A DNA stretch of 63,567 nt, counting the filler, from Stramenopiles sp. TOSAG23-6 (taxonomy: Eukaryota), in NCBI GenBank assembly GCA_900128565.1. It is 15 parts of 15 records of this genome, joined end to end, with 100 filler letters (N's around TTAATTAATTAA, not from the genome) between each part and the next. Parts side by side here need not be neighbours in the genome. Positions count along the whole stretch, not along the records: positions 1 to 4,163 come from LT637247.1; positions 4,264 to 8,426 come from LT637248.1; positions 8,527 to 12,689 come from LT637249.1; positions 12,790 to 16,950 come from LT637250.1; positions 17,051 to 21,210 come from LT637251.1; positions 21,311 to 25,467 come from LT637252.1; positions 25,568 to 29,713 come from LT637253.1; positions 29,814 to 33,956 come from LT637254.1; 7 more parts are not named here. One strand, given 5' to 3'. Under the pieces are notes generated by a model, which did no database searches, was not told the origin of the DNA, and saw only the letters and a list, made by a program, of their open reading frames with translations. Positions 206-59,451 of this stretch are shown in pieces. The position numbers and the translations under genes were made by a program. Within the stretch, counting starts at the first letter, position 1; the number at the start of each line of letters is the position of its first letter.

Positions 206-3200
206 GCTTCACTTTGGGAAAATGATCCAAATTCATTTGTTAGTAAAGCAGAATATTCTGGGGTTGGAGAATATGTTTGTTTTTTTCATTTCAATTTCAA
301 ATTTATTTTTTTTTGTACTACTAAAAATTTTTACTCAAACTTTTTTTTTTTTTTCGGTAAAAAAAAAAAAAAAAATATTTTTAACAATATGTACACTCAG
401 ATCGGTAGGTCCAGATTTTATTCGTTCTGTTCTTAATACAAAATCTCATTTAGGGTGTAGACGAAGAGCATCATCCTGGGGATCTGCTGCTGCTGTACTT
501 GCTATGAAATCTAATATGAAAAAGGTAAGCAGTATTGAAAGTGAAAATGCTAAAATTGAAAGTAGAAAGATTTTTTTATTGGTTTTAGACACGATTGTAT
601 GTTTTATTTTTTTTTTTTAACAAAGAAATCGAATTTTTTTTTATAGTAAATTTTGTACCTAACAAATTTTTTTTAGATTTTTTTCAAATATTTTTCCAAA
701 ATACTTTTTCGTACGAAATTTTGTACCTAACAAATTTAAGTTTTTTTTTTCAAATATTTTTCACAATACATGTACTTTATATCGTGTTCTTTACTATAGA
801 AAATCTCTATGGGCTTATGTAGAAAAAAATGCTATACATAAAATGAGTATAATAGATAAACAACTCAGACCTCTTTCTACTGCATTGGCGCATGTACGTT
901 TTATTTTTTTTTTTGAATTTCTAATTGTTTTTCATACGAAATTTTGTACCTAACGAATTAAAAAAATATATTTTTTCACAATATATGGAACTTTATCAAG
1001 AGTCGGTAGACCTTTTGGTTGTGCTATGTTGCGATTACTTCCAAAAAAGAATTGGAAAGGTTTGCGCCCAATAATGAACCTTTCATCGTGGAACAATACT
1101 GCTTGGCCGAAAGCAATGCGACCCATTTCAAAAAAAAATAAGAAATTACCTTTCTTTTCTTATCGACCACTACCCATCAATAAAGTTTTATTAAAAGTTT
1201 TTGATGTTTTAAAATATGAAAAGAGTAAAAAACCAAAATTGCTCGGTGCTACTGTATTTAGTATTGCTGATATGTACAACCGGTTAAAATCATTTGTAGA
1301 ACTATGGCGAGGATTTCGTGTAGCAGATGAAAAACCTTTTGGTGATGGACAAAATGGAAAGAATAAACCTTTATACTTTGTTGTTGGTGATGTAGCGAAA
1401 TGTTATGATACAATTGTACGTATTTGTCATTTCAATTTCGAACATTTTTTTTTACTATGAAAATTTCGTACCTAACATTTTTTTTTTAAAATATTTTTTT
1501 ACAATACTAAATCAAAAGATTTTATGGAAACTTTTAACAAAAAAGGTTTTGAAAAGTGAAGAATATGTCATTCATAAATATTCAGTCTTGTTCGTTTTCA
1601 AAATTGAATGTTTTACCTAAATTGTTTTTTTCATACGAAATATTGTACCTAACGATTTTTTTTATTTTTTTTTACCGAAAAAAAAAAAATATTTTTTCAC
1701 AATATTTGCGATCTTCAGAATCTAAGAATAAAAATAAAATTGCAAAGTGTAGCAATAAAGATGAAATCGTGACTGATTTCAGACGTTTAGCTCTACCTAG
1801 ATTATCAAGTACACTTCAATTAGCTACTGAAGTCTTTCAAAATCATCCTCTTAAAAGACACAAAATTAACCCTAACCCTATCCCAACTGGAAAAAGACAC
1901 AAAATTAACCCTAACCCTAGGGTTAACCCTACTCGAAAAGATCATACAATATCAACTTTATTAGCAAAATCTACTGAAAAACAAAATGAAAAAATACACA
2001 AAACTGAAAAATGTTTTGATATAAAGCAAAGTAAACAAAAAGGGAAAATATTTGTCGATGGTATTGTATGTTTTCATCATGAATTCCAAATTTATTTTTT
2101 TGTACCAAACTTTGTACCTAACAAATTTCGAATGTAAAATATTTTTCACAATACTTGTACTTTGCATTTGAATTTCATTTTTTNTTTTTTTTTTTTTCAC
2201 CAAAACATATTTCATACTTACAAAAAAACAATGTTTTACATATTTTTGCACAATATTTGTTCATGGATATGTGAAACGAAAAAATATCTTAAAATTAATT
2301 CGTGAACATTTGAGAAGAAATATGTATGTTTTTTTTTTTTTCAATTTTGATTTTTTTTCGTACGAAATTCCGTACCTAACAAATTTTACCAAAAAAAATA
2401 TTTTTACAAAAACATAGTACGATTAGGTACAAAATTCTATCAGCAAATGGTCGGTATTCCTCAAGGTTCTGTACTATCCGCTTTATTATGTGGATTATAT
2501 TATGGGCAAGTGGATGATGCGTTAGTCAATGCTGCAATGCAAAACATGAAAAAATACACGAAATCAAAACATAAATTTGATGAGGACGAAATTATTTCAA
2601 TTGTAAAAGAAACAATGATGAATAGATTAGGTAAAGAAAATGACAGTGACGATGAACTAATGGGTGGAATTTCTTTATCCAATGACAATAAAAATAATGA
2701 AAATAATGAAAATAATGAAAATAATGAAAATAATAGTTTTAATCATAAAAAAAAGAAATTTGGTACGGATTGTAATACAAAAAATAATAATAAAAAAAAA
2801 AGAAAGAGTGAATGTCTTGAACAACATTACACATACAATACTAATACTAATAATACGAATAATACGAATAATACTAATAATACGAATAATACGAATAATG
2901 TTTGTGTGACATCTACAACATCATCTTTTCAAAATTCGTTTAGCAAGAAATTTAGTACGAAATTTGGTACAGGTTCAACTTCAAATTTGCTACATATTGA
3001 TGATGATGATTTATTTGGTGGAATTCCTCAAATGAATTGGATAAAAGATGAAAAGAATAACAATAACGACACGAATTCTGTACTTTTACGTTTAATTGAT
3101 GATTTCTTATTTGTAACGCCTTCATTACAACTTGCAGTAGCTTTTGTTCATAAATTACATGCTGGAGATAGAAAATTAGGATTTCATGTACGTTTTCAGA

Positions 3201-4163
3201 ATTCATTTCAATTTTTTTTTTTTTTTTTTTTTTNGTACAAAATTGTATACTTAACAAAACAAATGAAAATTTGTCATATTATCCTAAAAGTAAAGGTCAA
3301 TTCGAGTAAAACATGCGTAAATTTTGATGTATGTGTAAAAATCACTGACCCTAAAGATAAAACAAAAACAATAAAAAAAAAGATAAAAAATATAGAAAAT
3401 AACACACTTAGTTGGTGTGGTTTAGAAATTAACACAAAAACATTTGAAATAATTACTGATTTTTCAAGGTATCGCATGTTTTCATTGTGAATTTCAAATT
3501 TATTTATTTTTTTTTTTTTTTTTTTAGTATGAAATTTTGTACCTAACAAATTTCGAATTTAATTTTTTTTTTACAATACATGCGATCAATCGCTTCGTTC
3601 TGCGATTCAATATAATTCAGGACTCGGACACAAACCTGGCCAGACGATTATTGATCATCTAAAAAATTTCATTAAACATAAATGTATGTTTTATCTTTTT
3701 TCAATTTCGATTTTTTTTTTTGGAAAGTTTTGTACCTAACAAAGTTTAATTTTCTTTTTTTTGAAATATTTTTCCAAAATACATGTCAAAAATTATTTTT
3801 TGATAGGTGTATCAATAAAATATCAACAATGTTACAACATATATGCAATGTGTTGATTATTGCAGCAATGAGATTTCATCTATTGTATCGAATTTTACAA
3901 CGAAAAAAAATCAAAAGAACAAAACGAAAAAAACGGAAAAAAAAAGGAAATATGAAAAAGGATACTTTTACTAAAAATGAAAAGAAGAATGAAAATTCAA
4001 ATTTCCTTTTTAGCATATTATTGGAAATTAGCAAATACACGCAAATTTTAATCCGAAAACGATTTTCCCCAGCATCATCTTTACAATACCAAAAATCAAA
4101 TCGAAATGAAAATAATGAAACAAATCGAAATGAAAACAATAAAACAAATTCGTTTCCATCGCA
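206..4163 (+). CDS. TERT: Telomerase reverse transcriptase, partial, multi-exon (copy 1). Inferred exons 206-274, 393-596, 772-893, 987-1415, 1510-1589, 1708-2065, 2259-2323, 2416-3187, 3296-3473, 3582-3683, 3785->4163
   Basis: Motifs in order: second half of T (RVLYYRKSLW), 1/2 (LRLLPKK..GLRPIMNL), A (FVVGDVAKCYDTI), B' (YQQMVGIPQGSVLS), C (LLRLIDDFL), D (GFHVNSSKT), E (SWCG), CTE (KCQKLFFD). Exon phases are consistent from 772 onward. Confidence 0.95.
894..986 (+). mobile_element. Introner-like non-canonical intron (GT...AT) in TERT
   Basis: GCGCAT|GTACGTTTT...TTTTGTACCTAAC...TTCACAATATAT|GGAACT; removal joins ALAH to GTLSR in frame with motif 1. Confidence 0.85.
1416..1509 (+). mobile_element. 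Introner-like non-canonical intron (GT...TA) in TERT motif A
   Basis: Removal gives CYDTI|NQKILWKLL, matching the TERT YD.I.Q..L spacing. Confidence 0.75.
1590..1707 (+). mobile_element. Introner-like non-canonical intron (GT...TT) in TERT
   Basis: GTCTT|GTTCGTTTT...GTACCTAAC...CACAATATTT|GCGA; TT on both sides; frame restored. Confidence 0.8.
2066..2258 (+). mobile_element. Two back-to-back introner-like elements (2066-2156 and 2157-2258) with no exon between them
   Basis: ATT|GTATGT...CAATACTT|GTACTT...CAATATTT|GTTCAT; removing both gives IFVDGI|VHGYVKRKNILKLIREHL. Confidence 0.8.
2324..2415 (+). mobile_element. Introner-like non-canonical intron (GT...AT) before TERT motif B'
   Basis: Removal gives EHLRRNIVRLGTKFYQQMVGIPQG; the three AGs between the element and MVGIPQG are all out of frame. 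Confidence 0.9.
3188..3295 (+). other. Family-derived intron with a canonical GT-AG boundary in TERT motif D
   Basis: GGATTTCAT|GTACGT...GTAAAG|GTCAAT gives GDRKLGFHVNSSKTCVNF, colinear with TERT motif D. Confidence 0.75.
3474..3581 (+). mobile_element. Introner-like intron, GC...AT
   Basis: AGGTATC|GCATGTTTTC...TTACAATACAT|GCGAT gives DFSRYRDQSL. Confidence 0.8.
3684..3784 (+). mobile_element. Introner-like intron, GT...AT, in the TERT C-terminal extension
   Basis: AAAT|GTATGT...CCAAAATACAT|GTCAA gives HKCQKLFFD. Confidence 0.85.
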
Positions 4164-4263
4164 NNNNNNNNNNNNNNNNNNNNNNNNNNNNNNNNNNNNN
4201 NNNNNNNTTAATTAATTAANNNNNNNNNNNNNNNNNNNNNNNNNNNNNNNNNNNNNNNNNNNN
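4164..4263. other. Artificial contig linker N-TTAATTAATTAA-N. Others at about 8427, 12690, 16951, 21211, 25468, 29714, 33957, 38199, 42436, 46672, 50905, 55130 and 59352
   Basis: 100-nt N spacer with a six-frame stop cassette, recurring every ~4.2 kb; contig lengths decrease steadily. Confidence 0.98.
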
Positions 4264-4468
4264 TTTTCATTGTGAATTTCAAATTTATTTATTTTTTTTT
4301 TTTTTTTTTTTAGTTTGAAATTTTGTAATTAACAATTTTCGATTTTAATTTTTTTTTTAGTTCGAAATTTTTTTCCTTAAAAAAAAAAAATTTTTTTTTT
4401 TTTTTTTTGGAAAAAAAAATTTCATAACAAACGAATTTCAAATTGTAAGAATATTTTTCATAAGACAT

Positions 4469-7400
4469 GCTTCACTTTGGGAAAATGATCCAAATTCATT
4501 TGTTAGTAAAGCAGAATATTCTGGGGTTGGAGAATATGTTTGTTTTTTTCATTTCAATTTCAAATTTATTTTTTTTTGTACTACTAAAAATTTTTACTCA
4601 AACTTTTTTTTTTTTTTCGGTAAAAAAAAAAAAAAAAATATTTTTAACAATATGTACACTCAGATCGGTAGGTCCAGATTTTATTCGTTCTGTTCTTAAT
4701 ACAAAATCTCATTTAGGGTGTAGACGAAGAGCATCATCCTGGGGATCTGCTGCTGCTGTACTTGCTATGAAATCTAATATGAAAAAGGTAAGCAGTATTG
4801 AAAGTGAAAATGCTAAAATTGAAAGTAGAAAGATTTTTTTATTGGTTTTAGACACGATTGTATGTTTTATTTTTTTTTTTTAACAAAGAAATCGAATTTT
4901 TTTTTATAGTAAATTTTGTACCTAACAAATTTTTTTTAGATTTTTTTCAAATATTTTTCCAAAATACTTTTTCGTACGAAATTTTGTACCTAACAAATTT
5001 AAGTTTTTTTTTTCAAATATTTTTCACAATACATGTACTTTATATCGTGTTCTTTACTATAGAAAATCTCTATGGGCTTATGTAGAAAAAAATGCTATAC
5101 ATAAAATGAGTATAATAGATAAACAACTCAGACCTCTTTCTACTGCATTGGCGCATGTACGTTTTATTTTTTTTTTTGAATTTCTAATTGTTTTTCATAC
5201 GAAATTTTGTACCTAACGAATTAAAAAAATATATTTTTTCACAATATATGGAACTTTATCAAGAGTCGGTAGACCTTTTGGTTGTGCTATGTTGCGATTA
5301 CTTCCAAAAAAGAATTGGAAAGGTTTGCGCCCAATAATGAACCTTTCATCGTGGAACAATACTGCTTGGCCGAAAGCAATGCGACCCATTTCAAAAAAAA
5401 ATAAGAAATTACCTTTCTTTTCTTATCGACCACTACCCATCAATAAAGTTTTATTAAAAGTTTTTGATGTTTTAAAATATGAAAAGAGTAAAAAACCAAA
5501 ATTGCTCGGTGCTACTGTATTTAGTATTGCTGATATGTACAACCGGTTAAAATCATTTGTAGAACTATGGCGAGGATTTCGTGTAGCAGATGAAAAACCT
5601 TTTGGTGATGGACAAAATGGAAAGAATAAACCTTTATACTTTGTTGTTGGTGATGTAGCGAAATGTTATGATACAATTGTACGTATTTGTCATTTCAATT
5701 TCGAACATTTTTTTTTACTATGAAAATTTCGTACCTAACATTTTTTTTTTAAAATATTTTTTTACAATACTAAATCAAAAGATTTTATGGAAACTTTTAA
5801 CAAAAAAGGTTTTGAAAAGTGAAGAATATGTCATTCATAAATATTCAGTCTTGTTCGTTTTCAAAATTGAATGTTTTACCTAAATTGTTTTTTTCATACG
5901 AAATATTGTACCTAACGATTTTTTTTATTTTTTTTTACCGAAAAAAAAAAAATATTTTTTCACAATATTTGCGATCTTCAGAATCTAAGAATAAAAATAA
6001 AATTGCAAAGTGTAGCAATAAAGATGAAATCGTGACTGATTTCAGACGTTTAGCTCTACCTAGATTATCAAGTACACTTCAATTAGCTACTGAAGTCTTT
6101 CAAAATCATCCTCTTAAAAGACACAAAATTAACCCTAACCCTATCCCAACTGGAAAAAGACACAAAATTAACCCTAACCCTAGGGTTAACCCTACTCGAA
6201 AAGATCATACAATATCAACTTTATTAGCAAAATCTACTGAAAAACAAAATGAAAAAATACACAAAACTGAAAAATGTTTTGATATAAAGCAAAGTAAACA
6301 AAAAGGGAAAATATTTGTCGATGGTATTGTATGTTTTCATCATGAATTCCAAATTTATTTTTTTGTACCAAACTTTGTACCTAACAAATTTCGAATGTAA
6401 AATATTTTTCACAATACTTGTACTTTGCATTTGAATTTCATTTTTTCTTTTTTTTTTTTTCACCAAAACATATTTCATACTTACAAAAAAACAATGTTTT
6501 ACATATTTTTGCACAATATTTGTTCATGGATATGTGAAACGAAAAAATATCTTAAAATTAATTCGTGAACATTTGAGAAGAAATATGTATGTTTTTTTTT
6601 TTTTCAATTTTGATTTTTTTTCGTACGAAATTCCGTACCTAACAAATTTTACCAAAAAAAATATTTTTACAAAAACATAGTACGATTAGGTACAAAATTC
6701 TATCAGCAAATGGTCGGTATTCCTCAAGGTTCTGTACTATCCGCTTTATTATGTGGATTATATTATGGGCAAGTGGATGATGCGTTAGTCAATGCTGCAA
6801 TGCAAAACATGAAAAAATACACGAAATCAAAACATAAATTTGATGAGGACGAAATTATTTCAATTGTAAAAGAAACAATGATGAATAGATTAGGTAAAGA
6901 AAATGACAGTGACGATGAACTAATGGGTGGAATTTCTTTATCCAATGACAATAAAAATAATGAAAATAATGAAAATAATGAAAATAATGAAAATAATAGT
7001 TTTAATCATAAAAAAAAGAAATTTGGTACGGATTGTAATACAAAAAATAATAATAAAAAAAAAAGAAAGAGTGAATGTCTTGAACAACATTACACATACA
7101 ATACTAATACTAATAATACGAATAATACGAATAATACTAATAATACGAATAATACGAATAATGTTTGTGTGACATCTACAACATCATCTTTTCAAAATTC
7201 GTTTAGCAAGAAATTTAGTACGAAATTTGGTACAGGTTCAACTTCAAATTTGCTACATATTGATGATGATGATTTATTTGGTGGAATTCCTCAAATGAAT
7301 TGGATAAAAGATGAAAAGAATAACAATAACGACACGAATTCTGTACTTTTACGTTTAATTGATGATTTCTTATTTGTAACGCCTTCATTACAACTTGCAG

Positions 7401-8426
7401 TAGCTTTTGTTCATAAATTACATGCTGGAGATAGAAAATTAGGATTTCATGTACGTTTTCAGAATTCATTTCAATTTTTTTTTTTTTTTTTTTTTTNGTA
7501 CAAAATTGTATACTTAACAAAACAAATGAAAATTTGTCATATTATCCTAAAAGTAAAGGTCAATTCGAGTAAAACATGCGTAAATTTTGATGTATGTGTA
7601 AAAATCACTGACCCTAAAGATAAAACAAAAACAATAAAAAAAAAGATAAAAAATATAGAAAATAACACACTTAGTTGGTGTGGTTTAGAAATTAACACAA
7701 AAACATTTGAAATAATTACTGATTTTTCAAGGTATCGCATGTTTTCATTGTGAATTTCAAATTTATTTATTTTTTTTTTTTTTTTTTTAGTATGAAATTT
7801 TGTACCTAACAAATTTCGAATTTAATTTTTTTTTTACAATACATGCGATCAATCGCTTCGTTCTGCGATTCAATATAATTCAGGACTCGGACACAAACCT
7901 GGCCAGACGATTATTGATCATCTAAAAAATTTCATTAAACATAAATGTATGTTTTATCTTTTTTCAATTTCGATTTTTTTTTTTGGAAAGTTTTGTACCT
8001 AACAAAGTTTAATTTTCTTTTTTTTGAAATATTTTTCCAAAATACATGTCAAAAATTATTTTTTGATAGGTGTATCAATAAAATATCAACAATGTTACAA
8101 CATATATGCAATGTGTTGATTATTGCAGCAATGAGATTTCATCTATTGTATCGAATTTTACAACGAAAAAAAATCAAAAGAACAAAACGAAAAAAACGGA
8201 AAAAAAAAGGAAATATGAAAAAGGATACTTTTACTAAAAATGAAAAGAAGAATGAAAATTCAAATTTCCTTTTTAGCATATTATTGGAAATTAGCAAATA
8301 CACGCAAATTTTAATCCGAAAACGATTTTCCCCAGCATCATCTTTACAATACCAAAAATCAAATCGAAATGAAAATAATGAAACAAATCGAAATGAAAAC
8401 AATAAAACAAATTCGTTTCCATCGCA
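4469..8426 (+). CDS. TERT: TERT, copy 2 (duplicate contig, offset 4263)
   Basis: Same sequence and ORF set as copy 1; the only difference seen is an N in copy 1 resolved as C here. Confidence 0.9.
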
Positions 8427-8731
8427 NNNNNNNNNNNNNNNNNNNNNNNNNNNNNNNNNNNNNNNNNNNNTTAATTAATTAANNNNNNNNNNNNNNNNNN
8501 NNNNNNNNNNNNNNNNNNNNNNNNNNTTTTCATTGTGAATTTCAAATTTATTTATTTTTTTTTTTTTTTTTTTTAGTTTGAAATTTTGTAATTAACAATT
8601 TTCGATTTTAATTTTTTTTTTAGTTCGAAATTTTTTTCCTTAAAAAAAAAAAATTTTTTTTTTTTTTTTTTGGAAAAAAAAATTTCATAACAAACGAATT
8701 TCAAATTGTAAGAATATTTTTCATAAGACAT

Positions 8732-11700
8732 GCTTCACTTTGGGAAAATGATCCAAATTCATTTGTTAGTAAAGCAGAATATTCTGGGGTTGGAGAATAT
8801 GTTTGTTTTTTTCATTTCAATTTCAAATTTATTTTTTTTTGTACTACTAAAAATTTTTACTCAAACTTTTTTTTTTTTTTCGGTAAAAAAAAAAAAAAAA
8901 ATATTTTTAACAATATGTACACTCAGATCGGTAGGTCCAGATTTTATTCGTTCTGTTCTTAATACAAAATCTCATTTAGGGTGTAGACGAAGAGCATCAT
9001 CCTGGGGATCTGCTGCTGCTGTACTTGCTATGAAATCTAATATGAAAAAGGTAAGCAGTATTGAAAGTGAAAATGCTAAAATTGAAAGTAGAAAGATTTT
9101 TTTATTGGTTTTAGACACGATTGTATGTTTTATTTTTTTTTTTTAACAAAGAAATCGAATTTTTTTTTATAGTAAATTTTGTACCTAACAAATTTTTTTT
9201 AGATTTTTTTCAAATATTTTTCCAAAATACTTTTTCGTACGAAATTTTGTACCTAACAAATTTAAGTTTTTTTTTTCAAATATTTTTCACAATACATGTA
9301 CTTTATATCGTGTTCTTTACTATAGAAAATCTCTATGGGCTTATGTAGAAAAAAATGCTATACATAAAATGAGTATAATAGATAAACAACTCAGACCTCT
9401 TTCTACTGCATTGGCGCATGTACGTTTTATTTTTTTTTTTGAATTTCTAATTGTTTTTCATACGAAATTTTGTACCTAACGAATTAAAAAAATATATTTT
9501 TTCACAATATATGGAACTTTATCAAGAGTCGGTAGACCTTTTGGTTGTGCTATGTTGCGATTACTTCCAAAAAAGAATTGGAAAGGTTTGCGCCCAATAA
9601 TGAACCTTTCATCGTGGAACAATACTGCTTGGCCGAAAGCAATGCGACCCATTTCAAAAAAAAATAAGAAATTACCTTTCTTTTCTTATCGACCACTACC
9701 CATCAATAAAGTTTTATTAAAAGTTTTTGATGTTTTAAAATATGAAAAGAGTAAAAAACCAAAATTGCTCGGTGCTACTGTATTTAGTATTGCTGATATG
9801 TACAACCGGTTAAAATCATTTGTAGAACTATGGCGAGGATTTCGTGTAGCAGATGAAAAACCTTTTGGTGATGGACAAAATGGAAAGAATAAACCTTTAT
9901 ACTTTGTTGTTGGTGATGTAGCGAAATGTTATGATACAATTGTACGTATTTGTCATTTCAATTTCGAACATTTTTTTTTACTATGAAAATTTCGTACCTA
10001 ACATTTTTTTTTTAAAATATTTTTTTACAATACTAAATCAAAAGATTTTATGGAAACTTTTAACAAAAAAGGTTTTGAAAAGTGAAGAATATGTCATTCA
10101 TAAATATTCAGTCTTGTTCGTTTTCAAAATTGAATGTTTTACCTAAATTGTTTTTTTCATACGAAATATTGTACCTAACGATTTTTTTTATTTTTTTTTA
10201 CCGAAAAAAAAAAAATATTTTTTCACAATATTTGCGATCTTCAGAATCTAAGAATAAAAATAAAATTGCAAAGTGTAGCAATAAAGATGAAATCGTGACT
10301 GATTTCAGACGTTTAGCTCTACCTAGATTATCAAGTACACTTCAATTAGCTACTGAAGTCTTTCAAAATCATCCTCTTAAAAGACACAAAATTAACCCTA
10401 ACCCTATCCCAACTGGAAAAAGACACAAAATTAACCCTAACCCTAGGGTTAACCCTACTCGAAAAGATCATACAATATCAACTTTATTAGCAAAATCTAC
10501 TGAAAAACAAAATGAAAAAATACACAAAACTGAAAAATGTTTTGATATAAAGCAAAGTAAACAAAAAGGGAAAATATTTGTCGATGGTATTGTATGTTTT
10601 CATCATGAATTCCAAATTTATTTTTTTGTACCAAACTTTGTACCTAACAAATTTCGAATGTAAAATATTTTTCACAATACTTGTACTTTGCATTTGAATT
10701 TCATTTTTTCTTTTTTTTTTTTTCACCAAAACATATTTCATACTTACAAAAAAACAATGTTTTACATATTTTTGCACAATATTTGTTCATGGATATGTGA
10801 AACGAAAAAATATCTTAAAATTAATTCGTGAACATTTGAGAAGAAATATGTATGTTTTTTTTTTTTTCAATTTTGATTTTTTTTCGTACGAAATTCCGTA
10901 CCTAACAAATTTTACCAAAAAAAATATTTTTACAAAAACATAGTACGATTAGGTACAAAATTCTATCAGCAAATGGTCGGTATTCCTCAAGGTTCTGTAC
11001 TATCCGCTTTATTATGTGGATTATATTATGGGCAAGTGGATGATGCGTTAGTCAATGCTGCAATGCAAAACATGAAAAAATACACGAAATCAAAACATAA
11101 ATTTGATGAGGACGAAATTATTTCAATTGTAAAAGAAACAATGATGAATAGATTAGGTAAAGAAAATGACAGTGACGATGAACTAATGGGTGGAATTTCT
11201 TTATCCAATGACAATAAAAATAATGAAAATAATGAAAATAATGAAAATAATGAAAATAATAGTTTTAATCATAAAAAAAAGAAATTTGGTACGGATTGTA
11301 ATACAAAAAATAATAATAAAAAAAAAAGAAAGAGTGAATGTCTTGAACAACATTACACATACAATACTAATACTAATAATACGAATAATACGAATAATAC
11401 TAATAATACGAATAATACGAATAATGTTTGTGTGACATCTACAACATCATCTTTTCAAAATTCGTTTAGCAAGAAATTTAGTACGAAATTTGGTACAGGT
11501 TCAACTTCAAATTTGCTACATATTGATGATGATGATTTATTTGGTGGAATTCCTCAAATGAATTGGATAAAAGATGAAAAGAATAACAATAACGACACGA
11601 ATTCTGTACTTTTACGTTTAATTGATGATTTCTTATTTGTAACGCCTTCATTACAACTTGCAGTAGCTTTTGTTCATAAATTACATGCTGGAGATAGAAA

Positions 11701-12689
11701 ATTAGGATTTCATGTACGTTTTCAGAATTCATTTCAATTTTTTTTTTTTTTTTTTTTTTNGTACAAAATTGTATACTTAACAAAACAAATGAAAATTTGT
11801 CATATTATCCTAAAAGTAAAGGTCAATTCGAGTAAAACATGCGTAAATTTTGATGTATGTGTAAAAATCACTGACCCTAAAGATAAAACAAAAACAATAA
11901 AAAAAAAGATAAAAAATATAGAAAATAACACACTTAGTTGGTGTGGTTTAGAAATTAACACAAAAACATTTGAAATAATTACTGATTTTTCAAGGTATCG
12001 CATGTTTTCATTGTGAATTTCAAATTTATTTATTTTTTTTTTTTTTTTTTTAGTATGAAATTTTGTACCTAACAAATTTCGAATTTAATTTTTTTTTTAC
12101 AATACATGCGATCAATCGCTTCGTTCTGCGATTCAATATAATTCAGGACTCGGACACAAACCTGGCCAGACGATTATTGATCATCTAAAAAATTTCATTA
12201 AACATAAATGTATGTTTTATCTTTTTTCAATTTCGATTTTTTTTTTTGGAAAGTTTTGTACCTAACAAAGTTTAATTTTCTTTTTTTTGAAATATTTTTC
12301 CAAAATACATGTCAAAAATTATTTTTTGATAGGTGTATCAATAAAATATCAACAATGTTACAACATATATGCAATGTGTTGATTATTGCAGCAATGAGAT
12401 TTCATCTATTGTATCGAATTTTACAACGAAAAAAAATCAAAAGAACAAAACGAAAAAAACGGAAAAAAAAAGGAAATATGAAAAAGGATACTTTTACTAA
12501 AAATGAAAAGAAGAATGAAAATTCAAATTTCCTTTTTAGCATATTATTGGAAATTAGCAAATACACGCAAATTTTAATCCGAAAACGATTTTCCCCAGCA
12601 TCATCTTTACAATACCAAAAATCAAATCGAAATGAAAATAATGAAACAAATCGAAATGAAAACAATAAAACAAATTCGTTTCCATCGCA
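8732..12689 (+). CDS. TERT: TERT, copy 3 (duplicate contig, offset 8526)
   Basis: Same sequence and ORF set as copies 1 and 2. Confidence 0.9.
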
Positions 12690-12837
12690 NNNNNNNNNNN
12701 NNNNNNNNNNNNNNNNNNNNNNNNNNNNNNNNNTTAATTAATTAANNNNNNNNNNNNNNNNNNNNNNNNNNNNNNNNNNNNNNNNNNNNAAAAATATTTC
12801 AAAATTTTCTTAAAAAAAAAAAACATTAGGTACAAAA

Positions 12838-12871
<34 letters not shown>

Positions 12872-12900
12872 GTAAATTCAAAATTGAAATGAAAACGTAC

Positions 12901-13225
12901 ATGGATTTGATAATAATTGAGGTGGAGTTTGTCCAAAATTATCAATCATTGAAATCATTAATTGAAATCTCATAGGATCAATTTCACGAACATGTATTTT
13001 GGAAAAATATTTGAAAAAATCTAAAAAAAATCGTTAGGTACAAAATTTTTATAAAAAACCAAAAAAAAATTCAATTTAAAAATTTAAAAAAAAAAAATAA
13101 AACCAACACATTCCAAGGATTCCCCACCAGCATTTTCATAGGAAACAGAAGCAAATACATTACAAGCATTAACTGCTGCTTCACTACCCTCGGCAAGGAA
13201 AGGACCTCTTTGTTTATGACCAAAT
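12901..13225 (-). CDS. BEACH-domain protein fragment (exons 13225-13108 and 12991-12901)
   Basis: Translates to FGHKQRG...AVNACNVFASVSYE...IDP...MIDNFGQTPPQL, the C-terminal BEACH signature. Not present in the ORF track. Confidence 0.85.
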
Positions 13226-13348
13226 ATGCATTTTGGAAAAATATTTCAAAATTTTCTATAAAAAAAAAATTGTTAGGTACAAATTGTTTTTACCAAAAAA
13301 AAAATAAATTCAATTTCAAATTTAAAAAAAAAATAAAATAAAACACAC

Positions 13349-16897: not shown

Positions 16898-17116
16898 ATG
16901 TATTTTGGAAAAATATTTCAAAAAAAAAAAAACTAAAATTTGTTAGGTACNNNNNNNNNNNNNNNNNNNNNNNNNNNNNNNNNNNNNNNNNNNNTTAATT
17001 AATTAANNNNNNNNNNNNNNNNNNNNNNNNNNNNNNNNNNNNNNNNNNNNAAATTTGTTAGGTACAAAATTTCGTACGAAAAAAAATTCGAATTTGAAAA
17101 AAATATGAAAACGTGC

Positions 17117-33912: not shown

Positions 33913-33956
<44 letters not shown>

Positions 33957-48031: not shown

Positions 48032-50700
48032 TTATTTACGTTGAAGTGATAAACGAGGATTAACACTAGTTTGACTTCTTTGTAATACAACGGGTGGTGG
48101 TGCACTTCCACTACGCAAAATACGTCTCTCAGAGTTAAGCCCCTGCATAGTTTGACTTCGATTAAGATGAACTGACGGGGGTGGAGGTGGATGCAGTTGA
48201 TGATTACTATTATTATTATTATTAACTTCTAAATAAGAATGAACAGTATTTAGAAATTGTTTTGGGACTACATGTATTTTGGAAAAATATTTCAAAAACC
48301 AAAGAAATCGTTAGGTACAACATTTCGTACGATAAAAAAATCGAATTTGAAAAAAAAAAAATAAAACATACATTGTTCCTTGCAGATTCAGGTCCAGCGA
48401 ACCTTACAAGATGTTGCAAATCTATAATACAACGTTGAAATCGTTCACGAGCATAAGCAACACCTTCCCCAGCACCCCATCGAAAATGCCAACATCCTCT
48501 TCCTCTTGGAGCTGGCCCACATTCTCTGAAACTTCCTTTCGTCACAAGCATTTGTCGTTGTACAGTGCTAAGTAAAATAGTTTTATTATCACGACTTCTT
48601 TGTTTTACCGTTGCTAACCAAGTCGGTGCAATTCCATTAGGCGTCGATCTTGACATTCGTAACAGGAAAGTTCCTTGATTTTCCCCTGAATCTTTTAATA
48701 TTTCACTATATTGACTCACTGGAAGCCATCCATGAAGAAGTTTTGTTGGCTTTTGTATAACCCATAAACCTTGAATTTCTTCAATCATTTTCATCCAAAG
48801 TGTCCAGAAATAGACCCAAAATCTTTCAAATTCAGCAAATGTCACTATCAAATCAATATCATTTGATTTATTATTTATATTATTTATATTGGTATGATCT
48901 TTAGATGTTTTTTTTGGAGGGAACCATTTTGGGTATCCATCAGCGACTAAACCGAAGAGTTCAGATGGAATCAGAGGGCGTTGAGTCGATGCTAAAGGAA
49001 ATGATGAATTAAAATGATTACATAGACTTTGGGCAAGAACAGACCATTGTGTAGTCGTTGTTGTAGTCATTTGAGACCAAAATGCTGATGCTGTATTTGC
49101 AATAGGATATGGAGTGGTGGGTATAACTATAGACTCTGTATTATTGCTAGCATTTCCTATTTTTGATACAGTATTATGAGAATCAAGAGGGAATGGATCT
49201 GATGATGATCGATATTGTATTGGTTTTTGAAAATTAGCAACCGTTGATCGAATTAAAGATATATAAGCTTCTCTATCATCAAGTAAATTTGTATGTTTTT
49301 GTAGTGCAACTTCATACACAGCTTTAGGTATACCTTGAAATGCTTTAATTAAATTACTTTTTGAAAATCTTTTAAAATCAGTCATTTCGGTCCAATCATT
49401 CCATTCATCAGAATCCATATTTTGTTAAACAGTATCTTTACACTTTAAAATTTATTAGGTAAAACATTTTGTTACAAAAAAAAAATACATTTGAACAATA
49501 TATTTGAACAATACATTTGAAAAACAAATGTTACAAGTAGGTACAAAATTTGTTTTACGAAAAAACAAAAAAATCAACTTCAAATGATGTCAATAAAAAC
49601 GTACATATCATCAATTTCATCACTTCGCATTTGATCCATTTCTATCAAAGTTAACATATTTGAGCATAAAGAATCAAACAACTCTGCACAATGAATATCA
49701 TGGAGACGTCCTATATGTACCACTTTATGAGGGATCAAAGTAGGAGGGGATACACATGTTATAATTACTTTTACATATCGTGTACTTGATAATTTTTGTA
49801 AAAAATCTGAAAAACATCGAGTAAATATTTTTTCTGTAAAGATTTCGTGATATGAACGAGGTGTTTCTATATTATTCTGACTAGGATATACTAAATTTTT
49901 GTTTGTAAATGTACCACTAGGATGACCATGTATTTTGCTTTTACTCTCTGGACTATTTACATTATTTACAGTTGTATACAACAAGTGTTCACATGTATTG
50001 TAAAAAAAATTAAATTCGAAATTTGTTAGGTACAAAATTTCGTACGAAAAAAAAAATAAATTTGAAATTCATAATGAAAACATACAACCATCTATAAATA
50101 AAAGTAATTTATCACTAGAATCTCTTCCAAACATTTTTTGCATTTCTAATAATAATTTTTGGGCACAAAGTATCCCTTTCCTATTAATTCTATTATCTAT
50201 ATTTATTTGTCCGGATTTTTCATTTTTATTACCATTTTGAAGATTTGTTTCATCTTGAATATTTTGTATTTTAACTTTACGTGATGTATTATTCAGTAAT
50301 ATCTGTGAAAAAAATGGTACAAATTGTGATTCACATAACTCACTTATTGCATCGGTCATACTTAGTGAATAACCATATGTTTGTTTTGTACTTATTTGGT
50401 ATTCCTTGACTTCATGTATTTTGTTTAATATTTTACACATTGTTTTTTTTTTGTTAGGTATGCATTTTGTAAAAAAACAAAAAACAAATCCTAAAAAAAT
50501 AAACTTTTGAAATGAATGATGAAAACATACATGTACTGAAGGCAAACGCAATGGTCCATTAAATGTCACCATTCGTGCATGTTTGAAATGACCAATTCTT
50601 TGACCAATATACTCAATAGACCGTAAAGCGAGTGTAGTTTTACCAATTCCCCTATTACCCACAATCGCAATACATTGACAATTTTCAGATCTTCGAGAAT
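48032..50700 (-). CDS. Multi-exon protein with a P-loop (GNRGIGKTT) and a C-terminal SH2-like domain, partial
   Basis: Walker A, LLLFIDG (Walker B-like), and HGWL...GTFLLRMSRSTP.GIA.TW. Confidence 0.65.
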
Positions 50701-51115
50701 TTACACAGGTAGCAAGTTCATATATATATTGTGAAAAAATATTTTTTTTTTTTGGTTTTTGGAGTACAAAAAAATGTTAGGTATGAAATTTTCATCGTAA
50801 AAAAAATAATAAAATCCATGATTGATGAAAACAAAAAAAAACAAAAAAATATAATAAAATCCATGATTGAGAAGCTTATATATCTTTAATTCGATCAACG
50901 GTTGNNNNNNNNNNNNNNNNNNNNNNNNNNNNNNNNNNNNNNNNNNNNTTAATTAATTAANNNNNNNNNNNNNNNNNNNNNNNNNNNNNNNNNNNNNNNN
51001 NNNNTTTTTTTTTTTTTTTTTTTTTTTTTTGAAAAATGTGTTAGGTACAATATTTCGTATGAAAAACAAACACAAAAAAAAAAAAAAAAAATCAAAATTC
51101 ATATTGAAAACGTAC

Positions 51116-55065: not shown

Positions 55066-55295
55066 ATGTATTTTGGAAAAATATTTCAAAAAAAAATCGT
55101 TAGGTACGAAATTTCGTATGNAAAAAAAANNNNNNNNNNNNNNNNNNNNNNNNNNNNNNNNNNNNNNNNNNNNTTAATTAATTAANNNNNNNNNNNNNNN
55201 NNNNNNNNNNNNNNNNNNNNNNNNNNNNNGTTAGGTACAAAATTTCGTACGAAAAAAAAATCGATTTTTTTGTTAAAAAAAAAAATAAAAAATAC

Positions 55296-56338: not shown

Positions 56339-59260
56339 CTAGTATTTTGATGATTTCAATAAAAAAATTACACAATACGTATGTATTTTGGAAAAATATT
56401 TCAAAAAAAATCTAAAAAAATCGTTAGGTACAAAATTTTTATAAAAAAAAAATCGATTTTTTGTTAAAAAAAAAAATAAAACATACATTTGCTTTATCAT
56501 CAGCTGCTGTGAGAAATCCCATTATTGAAAATAAAAACATGAGTGTTAAAACAAATGTAAGTATAGGCAATTGTTGTTGCATTTGATCCCATTCAATAAC
56601 ACCATTACCTGCCATGATGATGTATTTTGTAAAAATATTTCAAAAAAAAAAATTTAAAATTTTTGTTAGGTACAAAATTTTCAAAAAAAAAAAAACAATT
56701 CAAAATTGAAAAACCCTAACCCTAACCCTAACAAAACATACATCCCAAATAATGAAACAATGCTAACAAAAATCCAAATCCCATTAAATAATGCCAGAAT
56801 TTTAGACGATAGAGAACGTTTTGTAGTTAATTCTAACATTGTTGTGCGATGCATAAATTTGCGAAAACTTCGACTTTTTTTTAATTCACCTTTTTTCAAT
56901 TCTAACCCACAACATAATTTGACACGTTTGGCACATTTATTTTGGAAAAATATTTCAAATTTTTTTTTTTTTTNNNNNNNNNNNNNNNNNNNNNNNNNNN
57001 NNNNNNNNNNNNAAAAAAAAAAAACGTTTTTTTTTTACCGGAAAAAAAAAAAAAAAAAACATACATGGTCTTCGAACTTTTGAATTACAACAGCAGCAGA
57101 AGAATATTAATAATGATACGAATATGACACCACCAAAAATAGCCCATTCAAGCACAATGTCCGATTCACCGTATAATATACCAGTAATCGCTTCATGCTT
57201 ACAAAACTCTTCTGGGTCAGGACATGTATTTTGGAAAAATATTTCAAAAATAAATTGGTTAGGTACAAAATTTCGTATGAAAAATAAATTCGATTTTTTT
57301 TTTTTTTTTTCCGGTAAATAAAAAAAAAAAACTAAAACATACATGTAATACTTCCACTAAATCCAGGTAAATGAACATTCCCACCACCAGCGGGACATTT
57401 ATACCAGGAAGAATTTAGTCGACCTCTAATCTTAAATTGAAGATATGTTGGACTATAGCAATTCATCGCATAACATAAACCATATTTGCTCATACTTGGA
57501 TCAAATTTAAGAGAGCCTATGTATTTTAGAAAAATATTTCAAAAAAAATTCAAAAAAAATTGTTAGGTACAAAATTTCGNNNNNNNNNNNNNNNNNNNNN
57601 NAATTTCAATTTCAAATTTAAAAAAAAAAAATAAAACATACAATTCAACAAGACTACTTTCGAAACATCGACAATTCTTACAATGTGATTGACCACCAAA
57701 GAGCTGTAAGTCTGTGGATAAAGTGTTAAAGACACCAGAGAAATCTTGACTTGTATCAGGAGCGGATTGCATGTATTTTGGAAAAATAATTCAACATTTT
57801 TTTAAAAAAATTGTTAGGTACAACATTTCGTACGAAAACTAACTAAAAAAAAAAACTTTCAATTTTTTTGTTAAAAAAAAAATAAAACGTACATCTTACT
57901 TCTTGTACTTGACGGCTTATCATCTAAACAAGACCAGTACCCAACTCTAACAGGTGCATGATCCATTGCGGGTGAAAATCCACCTAAAATCCCTCCTGTT
58001 CCACTTAATTTTGATCCATCTTCAGTACCAAAATAAGTATAAATGTTTGGTAGATATGGATAATTTGCATTTTCCCAACATTTCACACTCGAACTTTCAC
58101 CATTACAACCAGCTTGTTTTGAAGCTTTATGATCTGAAGTTGGACCATACTGCACAAGATTACAACGGGCACTCATTCTATTATCAGGAGTACAGCCCCC
58201 TTCATTTGGTTTTGAAGCTTTACATGCGTATTTATCGCTCCATGCACCAGCACTACCTCGAAGGAATCTGCAGCCTTCACCACGACCCCAGCGAAGAAAC
58301 CCAGGCGTTCGGACAGAGGCTAATGATAAATCTGTAATTGTCTTTGCTCCAGTGATTACTGCAGTCCAACTTGAACTTTCGCCTTCATGTATTTTGGAAA
58401 AATATTTCAAAATTTTTTTACCAAAAAAAAAAAAAATTTGTTAGGTACAAAATTTTTTGAAAAAAAAAATTCAAAATTTTTTAAGAAAAAAAAATAAAAC
58501 ATACATCTTTTGATGTCGTAGCAAGTAAACGACCTCCCCAACTAAATGCAGGTGAAGCTACTGTTGAATTAAAAAAATCAGATTTGAAAACATTGATCCA
58601 ATCGTTTGAAGTTACAGGATTTGTTGAATTACTAATGACTTCACCATCTGCACCTAACGTTAAAGCATCGTCCACAGACACATTAGGTTTAGGGGTGTCG
58701 GTATTCGTTGATTCTTTAGGGCTTGTAGTAGTTGTTGTTGTAGAGCCTGAAGTAGAGCCTGAAGTAGAGCCTGAAGTAGAGCCTGAAGTAGAGCCTGAAT
58801 CATTTGGTATTATTTGAGTTGTTTGAGTTTCAGTTTTTTTAGCAGATCCAGAATCAGCATTTTTCATCTCTCGCATTATAACGTACTGCCGAGTATCTTC
58901 AAGAAAAGCTAAAGTAATATCAGACAGATAGGGTTCACCTGTACCTCCACCATAGGACATGACTGCAGGACCGAATAAGCGAGCTTCCCAGTGAGAATTT
59001 TTACCTAATGGCAAATCTTCAAGTGGTACACCTTCAATCTCATTACAACCAAATTGTGTCTTGGCTAAAAGAAGAACAAGAGGTGTTTTCAATAATAAAG
59101 TGCGTTTGTTATAATAACTTTCAGACATTGTCAAACCAGTCGATACGCCTTCTTTATAATCACCATCGGAATCATAAAAATAAATATCTTTTTCAGCTAC
59201 TTTTGTTCCATATAGTGAAACATCTTTTGTTGTAGTTTCGTCATGTCTAAACCTTTGCAG
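56339..59260 (-). CDS. Leishmanolysin/GP63-like (peptidase M8) protein with a Cys-rich region and TM segments, partial, multi-exon
   Basis: GVPLED...SHWEAR...MS...LSDITLAFLED...Y, WGRGEGC.FL; about 8 family introns; ends approximate. Confidence 0.85.
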
Positions 59261-59451
59261 TTGAAAATATTAAAATTTTTTTTTTTTTTTGTTAGGTACA
59301 AAATTTCGTATGAAAACCAAATTTTTTTTTGGGGATTTTTTTGGGATTTTTNNNNNNNNNNNNNNNNNNNNNNNNNNNNNNNNNNNNNNNNNNNNTTAAT
59401 TAATTAANNNNNNNNNNNNNNNNNNNNNNNNNNNNNNNNNNNNNNNNNNNN

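Follow-up and report, generated by a model that had tools for sequence, protein, structure and literature searches.

The stretch of DNA analysed here (63,567 nucleotides (nt), hereafter the window) comes from Stramenopiles sp. TOSAG23-6 (assembly GCA_900128565.1) and carries many copies of a short repeated element that interrupts its genes in the manner of an intron and ends without AG, contrary to the GT-AG rule that holds almost universally. The host genes are unrelated, as a preliminary description had claimed, and encode TERT, a PI3K-like protein, a leishmanolysin-like protease, an NTPase, and coiled-coil and low-complexity proteins; FolD, a kinase and other genes of the window are free of copies. 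The window is not a single locus: it strings together 15 contigs of 4.1-4.2 kilobases (kb) each, ordered by size and joined by linkers of the form N44-TTAATTAATTAA-N44 (for example at 4164-4263 and 8427-8526). Some of its members are duplicated, which the preliminary description had missed: contigs 1-3 (1-4163, 4264-8426 and 8527-12689) are one sequence in triplicate (99.98% identical), and contig 15 (59452-63567) repeats contig 13 (51005-55129), as judged from their identical lists of open reading frames (ORFs). Raw counts over the whole window are too high because of these duplicates, and counts were taken over the 12 unique contigs (49.6 kb).

A 25-mer from the core of the element had 44 matches at up to three mismatches, versus none in 100 shuffles, with 13 of the 44 lying in duplicated contigs. 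When an nhmmer profile built from 13 clean seed copies was run on the 12 unique contigs, 70 matches were found at E<1, 54 at E≤0.01 and 35 at E≤1e-5, and frame analysis or RNA added at least five further degenerate copies (275-392, 2157-2258, 15528-15652, 20090-20212 and 41817-41924). The earlier figure of roughly 60 copies is therefore right for the non-duplicated sequence, and the element string given with it coincides with the MAFFT consensus of 34 complete copies. For 44 complete copies both ends were fixed from fuzzy matches to the long end motifs, from coordinates taken directly from the sequence and from frame tests; loosely written regular expressions had placed several 3′ ends wrongly, and fuzzy matching to the long terminal motif was used in their stead. 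All 44 complete copies, and the partial copies that lie beside ORFs, are in the sense orientation relative to the flanking ORF, the only non-sense cases among the 54 profile matches being two internal fragments (32436-32516) between two plus-strand ORFs. Intron phases 0, 1 and 2 are represented by 16, 15 and 9 copies (n=40). The coding-strand orientation and the use of all three phases, both claimed before, thus stand.

A copy consists of a 5′ GTAYGTTTT, a central GTACCTAAC, a T-rich tract and a 3′ end ATATTTTTYMAMAATAY, flanked by a direct repeat of 2 base pairs (bp), mostly AT, whose first copy belongs to the upstream exon. The length is 89-193 nt (median 105.5; n=40), the longest being tandem or nested composites. 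Two subfamilies were distinguished: A-type copies end in ...GAAATATTTTTCCAAAATAC and share a mean pairwise identity of 0.85 (n=14), while the more diverged B-type copies end in ...TCACAATAC or ...TTACAATAC (mean identity 0.72; n=17); the A-type copies are taken as the younger and the B-type copies as the older. Three blocks are at least 90% conserved even in the diverged copies, namely GTAYGTTTT, which makes up bases 1-9, CCTAAC at the centre and A-AATAY at the end, the remainder of B-type copies having diverged. The 44 complete copies are as follows; the last two bases of the intron are written after a plus sign, and 'in frame' denotes a junction that passed the frame test described below.

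275-392, plus strand: TERT element-type intron, GTTTG...AATAT+GT; in frame, within the spliced ORF of 945 amino acids (aa)
597-771, plus strand: composite intron of a full A-type copy and a 5′-truncated copy, ATAC+AT; in frame only with 527-567 removed
894-986, plus strand: intron GTACG...ATAT+AT; in frame
1416-1509, plus strand: intron GTACG...ATAC+TA in a TERT reverse-transcriptase motif; no gap against seven homologues, in frame
1590-1707, plus strand: intron GTTCG...ATAT+TT with a TT/TT flank repeat; in frame
2066-2258, plus strand: two abutting copies (2066-2156 and 2157-2258) forming one 193-nt unit, ATAT+TT; no gap, in frame
2324-2415, plus strand: intron GTATG...AAAC+AT; no gap at the junction, in frame
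3474-3581, plus strand: intron with a GC start, GCATG...ATAC+AT; no gap at the junction, in frame
3684-3784, plus strand: A-type intron GTATG...CCAAAATAC+AT; no gap, in frame, the sole exact check of an A-type 3′ end
12992-13107, minus strand: A-type intron with a degenerate 5′ end GTTGG; frame test ambiguous
13226-13348, minus strand: A-type intron with degenerate ends GTGTG...ATGC+AT; the sole real frame exception (-1 or +2 nt)
13603-13707, minus strand: intron GTAGG...AGAT+AT; collinear with P0130 across a 35-codon gap, in frame
13988-14079, minus strand: intron GTACG...GTAC+AA; in frame
14425-14515, minus strand: intron GTACG...ATAC+AT; in frame
14712-14819, minus strand: intron GTACG...ATAT+AT; in frame
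15528-15652, minus strand: variant copy with an ACTAAT branch-like motif, ATAC+AC; in frame
16135-16243, minus strand: degenerate copy GTACG...AAAC+AT; in frame
17607-17708, minus strand: intron GNACG...ATAT+GT; in frame
17842-17965, minus strand: degenerate copy GTAGG...GAGT+TT; in frame
20090-20212, plus strand: intron GTATG...ATAC+TG; in frame
25858-25963, plus strand: intron with an AT start, ATATG...ATAC+AT; in frame
28390-28482, minus strand: intron GTATG...AAAC+AT; in frame
38427-38574, minus strand: composite copy, AAAT+AT; in a spliced ORF, in frame
38729-38817, minus strand: A-type intron; in a spliced ORF, in frame
38889-38981, minus strand: A-type intron; in a spliced ORF, in frame
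39041-39137, minus strand: B-type intron; in a spliced ORF, in frame
39189-39288, minus strand: A-type intron; in a spliced ORF, in frame
39644-39735, minus strand: B-type intron GTACG...ATAC+AT; record 18 of RNA run X8 joins 39734 to 39641, the same product as 39736 to 39643 (2-nt ambiguity)
39890-39997, minus strand: A-type intron; in a spliced ORF, in frame
40165-40265, minus strand: A-type intron, ATAC+AC with AC before GT; in a spliced ORF, in frame
41817-41924, minus strand: B-type intron GTATGC...ATAC+AT with CCCTAA repeats at the branch motif; skipped in record 30 of RNA run X9, contained in record 7 of DNA run X3
42054-42146, minus strand: A-type intron; in a spliced ORF, in frame
42200-42304, minus strand: B-type intron, ATAC+TT with TT before GT; in frame, contained in record 8 of DNA run X3
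43208-43300, minus strand: A-type intron; in frame
48272-48371, minus strand: A-type intron; in frame
49993-50085, minus strand: B-type intron; in frame
50414-50530, minus strand: intron GTATG...ATAC+AT; in frame
50724-50854, minus strand: copy with an uncertain 5′ end near a contig end; frame test not evaluable
56381-56486, minus strand: A-type intron 13 codons before the stop; frame test not evaluable
56620-56741, minus strand: A-type intron with three TTAGGG units near its 5′ end; in frame
57224-57342, minus strand: A-type intron in the leishmanolysin-like gene; in frame
57519-57641, minus strand: A-type intron holding a run of N; in frame
57771-57892, minus strand: A-type intron; in frame
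58387-58504, minus strand: A-type intron; in frame

In an independent seawater DNA metagenome, the depths of contigs matching the element bins summed to 10^3-10^4 or tens of thousands, versus about 3-8 for exons; these sums are not copy numbers and are taken only as a sign that the copy number of the element is very high. For the contig at 38299-42435, the element was likewise over-represented relative to exons in runs X6 and X9, about equally in RNA-run and DNA-run contigs (thousands versus 2-4). The excess in RNA runs could reflect abundant unspliced or excised intron RNA from many loci, or DNA carry-over, between which contig depths cannot tell.

Removal of the element from transcripts was followed on the contig at 38299-42435, which was compared with four sequencing runs; the runs that hold this DNA are seawater metagenomes and metatranscriptomes. 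An intron is spanned, with over 31 nt to either side, by one contig from each of two RNA runs that belong to different studies. In the first (X8, record 18), 92 nt are skipped that correspond on the coding strand to GTAYG...ATAC+AT (39644-39735), and in the second, from polyA RNA (X9, record 30), the 108 nt skipped are again GTAYG...ATAC+AT (41817-41924). Because of bases shared across the junctions, the 92-nt skip can also be written TA..TG or AC..GT and the 108-nt skip AT..AC, TG..CA or TA..TG; the only readings common to both are GT..AT and TA..TG. Neither of these introns has AG at or near the junction, and in 41817-41924 an AG that follows the T tract, 19 nt before the real end, is not used. 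In an independent metagenome (X3), DNA contigs cover the whole of 41817-41924 and of 42200-42304 and reach 16 nt into both ends of 39644-39735. Single-nucleotide polymorphisms at 39576, 41775 and 41934 are common to these DNA contigs and the RNA contigs, and therefore the same genotype has the segment in its DNA and lacks it in its RNA. The removal is at the RNA level, not the DNA level.

Reading frames agree with these junctions. When the 11 introns of the contig at 38299-42435 were cut two bases after ATAY, an ORF of 792 aa (eight junctions) and one of 137 aa (three junctions) were obtained, whereas shifting all 3′ ends by 1-2 nt broke the ORFs to a maximum of 434 aa. On the TERT contig, removal of 11 segments produced a single ORF of 945 aa, compared with 379 aa unspliced. 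Tested junction by junction, with shifts of single introns by 1-2 nt as controls, 40 of the 44 element-type junctions passed, which fixes the excised length modulo 3 and bears out the claim that frames are restored by a cut at ATAY plus two bases, without AG. Two of the misses could not be evaluated, as 50724-50854 lies at a contig end and a stop is only 13 codons away from 56381-56486; the junction of 12992-13107 is rescued when the other open frame of the short middle exon is used. The composite 597-771 passes only with 527-567 removed as well, the alternative being a cut one base earlier and no intron at 527-567.

Exact ends were further given by comparison with homologous proteins. In a MAFFT alignment with eight TERT proteins there is no gap at 1416-1509, 2066-2258, 2324-2415, 3474-3581 or 3684-3784, all of which lie in conserved blocks. 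A relative of the PI3K-like protein, P0130 (55% identical), spans 13603-13707 in a tblastn alignment whose gap, exactly 35 codons long, equals the 105-nt intron, and is otherwise collinear. The restoration of conserved residues by the ATAY-plus-two cut, another of the early claims, accordingly holds at six junctions (five in TERT plus 13603-13707), and together with the two RNA junctions the exact ends are established at eight. The catalytic core of P0130 (residues 171-429) has no counterpart in the contig, and the junctions 13226-13348 and 12992-13107 are not settled by this relative. For exon 2 of the leishmanolysin-like gene, the homologue search returned one match (42% identity), which does not cross a junction.

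Removal at the DNA level, as of the internal eliminated sequences of ciliates, or dead genes in a faulty assembly with no removal at all, would be another way to account for interrupted frames. Short AT-rich elements with a 2-bp repeat, one copy of which stays behind, recall the internal eliminated sequences of Paramecium, and the assembly is indeed fragmented, with runs of N and duplicated contigs. However, the X3 DNA contigs keep 41817-41924 and 42200-42304 and enter 39644-39735, while RNA contigs with the same polymorphisms lack them; a uniform sense orientation (44 of 44) is not expected of eliminated DNA; and long ORFs with conserved TERT motifs are restored across 11 junctions. We regard this explanation as hardly credible.

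The 5′ ends of the 44 introns are GT in 40 cases, GC, GN and AT in one each, and a doubtful TT in one, with G at position +5 in 42 and T at +6 in 43. The last two bases are AT (33), TT (4), GT (2), AC (2), TA (1), AA (1) and TG (1), and never AG; the AT, TT, AC and TA ends named in the preliminary description are all present, to which GT, AA and TG are now added. The 3′ consensus is T-Y-C-A-M-A-A-T-A-Y-A-T/G (slash, cut), with a pyrimidine at -3 in all 44 introns, A at -2 in 36 and T at -1 in 39. The predicted branch-like motif CCTAAC is at least 90% conserved in the 34 aligned copies and is followed by the T tract. Between it and the intron end no AG occurs in 27 of 41 copies, and the other 14 contain 16 AGs, of which only four would keep the frame. 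In simple copies the distance from the A of CTAAC to the intron end varies from 33 to 56 nt, whereas that from ATAY to the cut is 2 nt in every exactly mapped case. Therefore, the position of the 3′ site depends on the terminal motif and not on the distance from the branch. Compared with U2-type introns, the GT(GC) donor with its extended consensus is present, as is a CTRAY-type motif with a pyrimidine tract (its use as a branch site being predicted); a YAG end at the first suitable AG after the branch is absent (0 of 44, with an upstream AG skipped in 41817-41924).

A transformed minor (U12-type) spliceosome, in which the pairing regions of U11, U6atac and U12 had changed to match GTAYGTTTT and ACCTAAC and the 3′ cut was made without AG, could also produce such ends. 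The donor and branch motifs of the element, like those of U12-type introns, are long and strongly conserved; ACCTAAC differs by one deletion and one substitution from TCCTTAAC, the consensus quoted in the accessible part of a study of Physarum (10.1101/2020.10.12.336362); and about half of the copies (23 of 42 follow AT), including the RNA-verified 41817-41924, can be read as AT...AC by a 2-nt shift. According to the same part of that study, U12-type introns tolerate GT-AT, AT-AT and AT-AA ends, and their expansion in Physarum involved a putative transposon with a TA duplication, a co-evolved small nuclear RNA (snRNA) and a changed branch motif. However, the U12-type donor [G/A]TATCCTT is found in none of the 44 introns, in which even the donor ATCC never occurs and +5 is G in 42. 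Nor is the U12-type branch motif TTCCTTRAC present near the 3′ end: the motif here is ACCTAAC, and its branch-like A lies 33-56 nt from the end, against a tight window of about 10-12 nt in Physarum, as given in the portion of the source available (10.1101/2020.10.12.336362). Moreover, the AT-AC reading is impossible for the RNA-verified 39644-39735, where CA precedes GT. Removal by a minor spliceosome appears improbable. The preliminary description had dismissed it for want of an ATATCC donor; the donor argument stands, whereas the tolerance of GT-AT ends by U12-type introns means that more than this argument was needed.

That description had also offered pairing of the two ends as a possible determinant of the 3′ site, a suggestion which the structural analyses do not support. 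RNAalifold found no conserved pairs in the 34 copies; in the 4-bp helix of the ends a single compensatory change was seen, and covariation did not exceed that of shuffled data (198 of 500 shuffles reach the observed value); and eight introns, folded individually, gave -4.4 to -12.9 kcal/mol, no better than shuffled sequences (z from -1.6 to 0.0). Therefore, extensive end pairing of the kind described for euglenids, hemistasiids and Amoebophrya is not present. These data also bear on a non-spliceosomal or otherwise novel path like that of euglenids, in which the inverted ends would bring the junctions together and a cut at a fixed offset would leave one copy of the flank repeat. For such a path speak the disregard of a well-placed AG, the closure of the intron by a GUAU/AUAC helix with a 2-nt 3′ overhang in four of the eight folds (minimum-energy or centroid), and the features shared with the introns of euglenids, hemistasiid diplonemids and Amoebophrya in the sections consulted of PMC11282704, PMC12621601 and PMC7789003, respectively, namely short inverted ends, junction repeats resembling target duplications and non-AG ends set by position. 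The helix, however, is only 3-4 bp long, lacks a consensus structure and covariation and sits in folds equal to shuffled ones, and the strong conservation of the GTAYGT donor and of CTAAC with its T tract is the opposite of the variable ends found there. This path is judged distinctly unlikely, somewhat below the minor spliceosome.

The ends of the element carry a second kind of information, which the preliminary description had missed. The first four and last four bases, GTAT...ATAC, form an inverted repeat that is able to pair in 88.7% of cells; it is short, with 4 nt perfect and about 8/9 matching with one indel in A-type copies, by eye. In 26 of 42 copies the exon dinucleotide that precedes GT is identical to the one that closes the intron, versus a permutation mean of 19.0 (p=0.00045). 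The match follows the sequence of the end: TT-ended introns follow TT in all four cases, the AC-ended 40165-40265 follows AC, and copies ending in other than AT match in five of nine; the second AC-ended copy (15528-15652), outside the set of 42, follows AT and does not match. By subfamily, 15 of 18 A-type copies match versus 10 of 19 B-type copies. The putative target is A-T/G, with A at -2 in 26 of 42, T at -1 in 32 and G at +1 in 23. Inverted ends plus a flank repeat point to a DNA transposon resembling a miniature inverted-repeat transposable element (MITE) with a 2-bp target-site duplication, and the variety of GT-AT, GT-TT and GT-AC ends would then arise because the ends are mostly a record of target sites. 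The intronic dinucleotide is more uniform than the exonic one (AT in 33 versus 23 of 42), which suggests some selection on the last bases too. The tandem, nested and 5′-truncated copies (597-771, 2066-2258 and 38427-38574) look like insertions at the DNA level. In the unit at 2066-2258, the 3′ end of the first copy stands directly before the GT of the second, leaving a zero-length exon, and either one-step or recursive splicing is possible there.

Alternatively, the copies may have originated by reverse splicing into transcripts at AT/G, followed by reverse transcription and recombination, in which case the terminal AT would be intronic and no DNA transposon would be involved. The greater uniformity of the end AT than of the flank AT, the 16 unmatched pairs among 42, the sense orientation of all genic copies, and the fact that neither a transposase nor an antisense genic copy was seen in the window are all in keeping with this origin. 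Yet reverse splicing does not predict that ends track flanks (TT/TT in four of four, AC/AC in one of one within the set of 42; p=0.00045), nor does it sit easily with inverted-repeat ends or with tandem, nested and 5′-truncated copies that look like DNA-level insertions; we consider it an improbable origin, about on a par with the minor spliceosome.

In the mechanism that we prefer, what is removed from the transcript begins with the first G and extends two bases beyond ATAY; it comprises the element together with one copy of the target duplication, and therefore the original reading frame is restored exactly. The major (U2-type) spliceosome would act through the element's own GTAYGT donor and CTAAC branch site; it is favoured because of this donor, the position of CTAAC and the T tract at a normal distance, the survival of sense copies only and the retention of these blocks in old copies. 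The conserved GTAYGTTTT, CCTAAC and A-AATAY blocks would thus be signals under selection, a point that counts for this mechanism. The second step would be aimed at a set position immediately behind the terminal motif (...AATAY-AT/G versus the usual Y-AG/G) and not at the first AG. In structural work the 3′ AG is normally recognized through non-Watson-Crick contacts, one between its A and the branch adenosine and another between its G and the G that opens the intron; with an A-U end the former contact would be kept and the latter changed, which is offered as a lead only. From these data we infer DNA transposition as the mode of spread, the spliceosome as the machine and the terminal motif as the 3′ signal.

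The affinity of the host was sought through the FolD ORF, which lies on a contig ending in an element copy. Its protein is 100% identical to a Logan-derived protein and 94% identical to a EukProt record with a MAST-3-like label; the next matches are from JGI (76%) and then at 64-70%, the named ones among these being mostly diatoms. We conclude from this comparison that the host is probably an uncultured marine heterotrophic stramenopile near MAST-3. A diplonemid affinity, first guessed from single-cell genomes with predicted non-canonical introns, was dropped, as the best named match is MAST-3-labelled and the next are diatoms.

Taken as a whole, the elements are probably very-high-copy, short, non-autonomous, MITE-like introners that are removed by the major spliceosome in a stramenopile near MAST-3. 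A stronger version is put forward tentatively, as a possibility: that the major spliceosome has gained a second, AG-independent choice of 3′ site (AAUAY plus two bases, overriding nearer AGs), and that one MITE with a 2-bp duplication has given rise to nearly all introns of the genome, in thousands of copies.

Several observations weigh against this interpretation. Only two junctions come from RNA, both B-type and both in metatranscriptome contigs of low depth (2-2.9), so that A-type ends are without RNA support and have their sole exact check in the homology junction 3684-3784. The 3′ part of the element contains no stop codon in any frame, and in-frame cuts, such as one 15 nt earlier, also keep ORFs open; therefore, ORF tests fix the excised length only modulo 3, and the exact ends come from the two RNA contigs and the six homology-collinear junctions. 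One copy with degenerate ends (13226-13348) breaks the rule and requires a shift of -1 or +2 nt, and in the degenerate copy starting at 3188 the rule-conforming end at 3283 creates a four-residue insertion relative to seven homologues, which an AG end at 3295 removes. The flank repeat is mismatched in 16 of 42 copies; an autonomous partner, an empty site or an antisense genic copy was not seen among the copies in the window; and, to our knowledge, a 2-bp AT duplication is not typical of transposon superfamilies. The usual scanning model of the major spliceosome does not predict that a well-placed AG is skipped. Finally, the placement of the host rests on one protein. Finding introns by ORFs alone had been tried and was given up, since the stop-free tail offers many in-frame alternative ends among which the exact one cannot be fixed.

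The remaining family members and candidate introns of the window are listed below.

3188-3295, plus strand: degenerate family member ending at 3283 (non-AG) or at AG 3295, both of which keep the frame; 3295 fits seven homologues better
527-567, plus strand: candidate conventional 41-nt GT...AG intron without similarity to the family; needed for frame continuity with 597-771
33202-33324, plus strand: probable copy GTACT...AAAC+AT; 3′ end set by eye
33508-33688, plus strand: composite copy, AAAC+AT; local frames agree
1-205, plus strand: copy cut by a contig start, 3′ end ...GAC+AT; read from the sequence
12790-12900, minus strand: copy cut by a contig end, 5′ part kept
16898-16950, minus strand: copy cut by a contig end, 3′ part kept
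17051-17115, minus strand: copy cut by a contig end, 5′ part with a GCACG start; 5′ coordinate approximate
21311-21365, minus strand: copy cut by the end of the FolD-bearing contig; 5′ coordinate approximate
25568-25672, plus strand: copy cut by a contig start, 3′ part
29814-29903, minus strand: copy cut by a contig end, 5′ part with a GTAAG start
38299-38389, minus strand: copy cut by a contig end, 5′ part
42376-42435, minus strand: copy cut by a contig end, 3′ part, ATCC+AT
51005-51114, minus strand: copy cut by a contig end, 5′ part; 5′ coordinate approximate, duplicate at 59452-59561
55066-55129, minus strand: copy cut by a contig end, 3′ part
55230-55295, minus strand: copy cut by a contig end, 5′ part; coordinate approximate
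32436-32516, minus strand: two internal fragments holding only the branch-motif region, between plus-strand ORFs
59289-59351, minus strand: family fragment upstream of the leishmanolysin-like ORF, with the end ...CAACTGCAAAG just before the ORF; 5′ part lost at the contig end

If both the 527-567 intron and the AG end of 3188-3295 are real, AG and non-AG ends would coexist in the TERT gene, for which they are candidates. The fragment at 59289-59351 may represent a further copy with an AG end, or else an intron of a 5′-untranslated region. Among the 24 ends of unique contigs, 14 fall inside an element copy (13 profile matches, 12 of them at E≤0.01, plus one 5′-truncated copy recognized by eye where contig 1 begins), and therefore the assembly breaks on the element repeat. 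An Rfam search of the 63,567-nt window matched no family, and two scans of viral collections for the element returned 0 loci. A 17-mer scan of metagenomes was discarded, its 64 loci being chance matches; nhmmer added little beyond the 17-mer (best E 0.0018, mostly 20-35 nt).

Telomere-type repeats are scattered over the window: (TTAGGG)2 units occur 25 times at up to one mismatch versus 0.08 expected, including at 1870-1920, 20406-20417, 39385-39396, 42553-42615, 43879-44082, 41852-41869 and 56714-56731. Several lie in coding exons, always as CCCTAA on the sense strand, where they encode N-P-N-P runs (TERT, the coiled-coil gene and the ORF at 42480-44720), and element copies contain two, of which one coincides exactly with the CCTAAC branch-like motif. 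These units could be footprints of telomerase break repair. In the TERT frame, a long asparagine-rich low-complexity insertion with tandem AATGAAAAT- and AATACGAAT-type repeats (2600-2960, plus strand) sits between two conserved reverse-transcriptase blocks. The PI3K-like gene (12790-13602, minus strand) has the exon with the lipid-kinase signature, and the catalytic core of about 260 residues present in its closest relative, P0130, lacks a counterpart before the contig end, the sequence that follows instead being weakly similar to the tail of that protein; the gene may encode a pseudokinase or have decayed, or a chimera of assembly or amplification is possible.

Bursts of intron gain are at present best explained by introners, and the family described here offers a natural test case of how new introns arise and how their ends are recognized. 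A transposon of this kind would be harmless at once, because the element and one copy of the duplicated target are removed together. Since the donor and branch-like signals are textbook ones and only the 3′ end departs, and does so uniformly, the question of what replaces AG is cleanly posed and testable. In systems described so far the question is harder to approach: described introner families keep standard ends, and curation discards others, as stated in the available text of PMC12130899, while the ends in Fritillaria, Amoebophrya, euglenids and hemistasiids are, from what the cited sources give, scrambled or variable and hard to dissect. Should a second, AG-independent choice of 3′ site be true, it would provide a natural system in which to take apart site choice at the second step. 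It would also mean that published gene sets of these uncultured flagellates, including the gene decay reported for them, are distorted by unrecognized introns. The excerpted text of a single-cell study of MAST-3 and MAST-4 (PMC5778133) gives low gene numbers for MAST-3 and, for one lineage, describes 'advanced pseudogenization' of dynein genes; speculatively, these calls may need re-examination if those assemblies carry the element family. Unusual introns are not discussed in the main texts, as far as these were available, of the MAST genome papers PMC5778133, PMC12614181 and PMC8163842. No prior description of this intron family was found in the literature searched for it, and 'not in print' is limited to that search. 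Standard gene finders will fail on such genomes.

The closest comparison is with the introners of Micromonas pusilla and Aureococcus anophagefferens and with the introner families catalogued since then in other eukaryotes, which reportedly are near-identical short introns with transposon hallmarks, the element being spliced out with one copy of the duplication so that the frame is restored. Like them, the present family comprises many similar short introns in unrelated genes, with inverted ends and a putative target duplication, in an aquatic host, and Aureococcus is also a stramenopile. It behaves as an introner, as the preliminary description had proposed: many similar, intervening, sense-oriented copies occupy unrelated genes in all three phases, and are precisely removed from mRNA at non-AG 3′ ends with restoration of the frame (two RNA contigs, 40 of 44 frame tests and six homology junctions). 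However, those earlier families keep canonical splice motifs according to the section of PMC7789003 that treats them, and the curation rules set out in the part of PMC12130899 at hand accept only AG or AC 3′ ends, whereas here AG ends number 0 of 44 and AC ends 2 of 44, outside the canonical GY-AG or AT-AC pairs.

Similar differences separate the family from lineages with mass non-canonical introns. In the tunicate Fritillaria borealis, the extracts of PMC11282704 and PMC12621601 describe a genome-wide replacement of ordinary introns by MITE-derived non-GT-AG ones, presumed to be handled by a U2-type spliceosome and most commonly AG-AC or AG-AT, besides many other pairs, whereas the present family begins with a classical GTAYGT and departs only at its 3′ end. 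Amoebophrya, also a marine protist, has repeated introns with repeats overlapping the junctions and with RNA-confirmed non-canonical ends; in the description drawn on (PMC7789003), these have hairpin inverted repeats of 8-20 nt, direct repeats of 3-5 nt and no dominant dinucleotide, unlike the 4-nt end repeat, the lack of a stable fold, the 2-nt repeat and the dominant GT...AT (33 of 44) found here. With euglenids and hemistasiid diplonemids, as summarized in passages of PMC11282704 and PMC12621601, the family shares non-AG ends, junction repeats resembling target duplications and a suspected MITE origin; unlike those introns, which are characterized there by the lack of a conserved GT donor or branch motif and by extensive end pairing, it has conserved motifs and marginal pairing. 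The U12-type introns of Physarum polycephalum, in the excerpt of 10.1101/2020.10.12.336362, likewise allow a non-AG end, including GT-AT, carry long motifs and have been ascribed to a transposon with a 2-bp duplication, yet here the donor lacks ATCC and the branch-like motif is 33-56 nt from the 3′ end. The element thus works as an introner, bears the marks of a MITE and differs from each known lineage with mass non-canonical introns.

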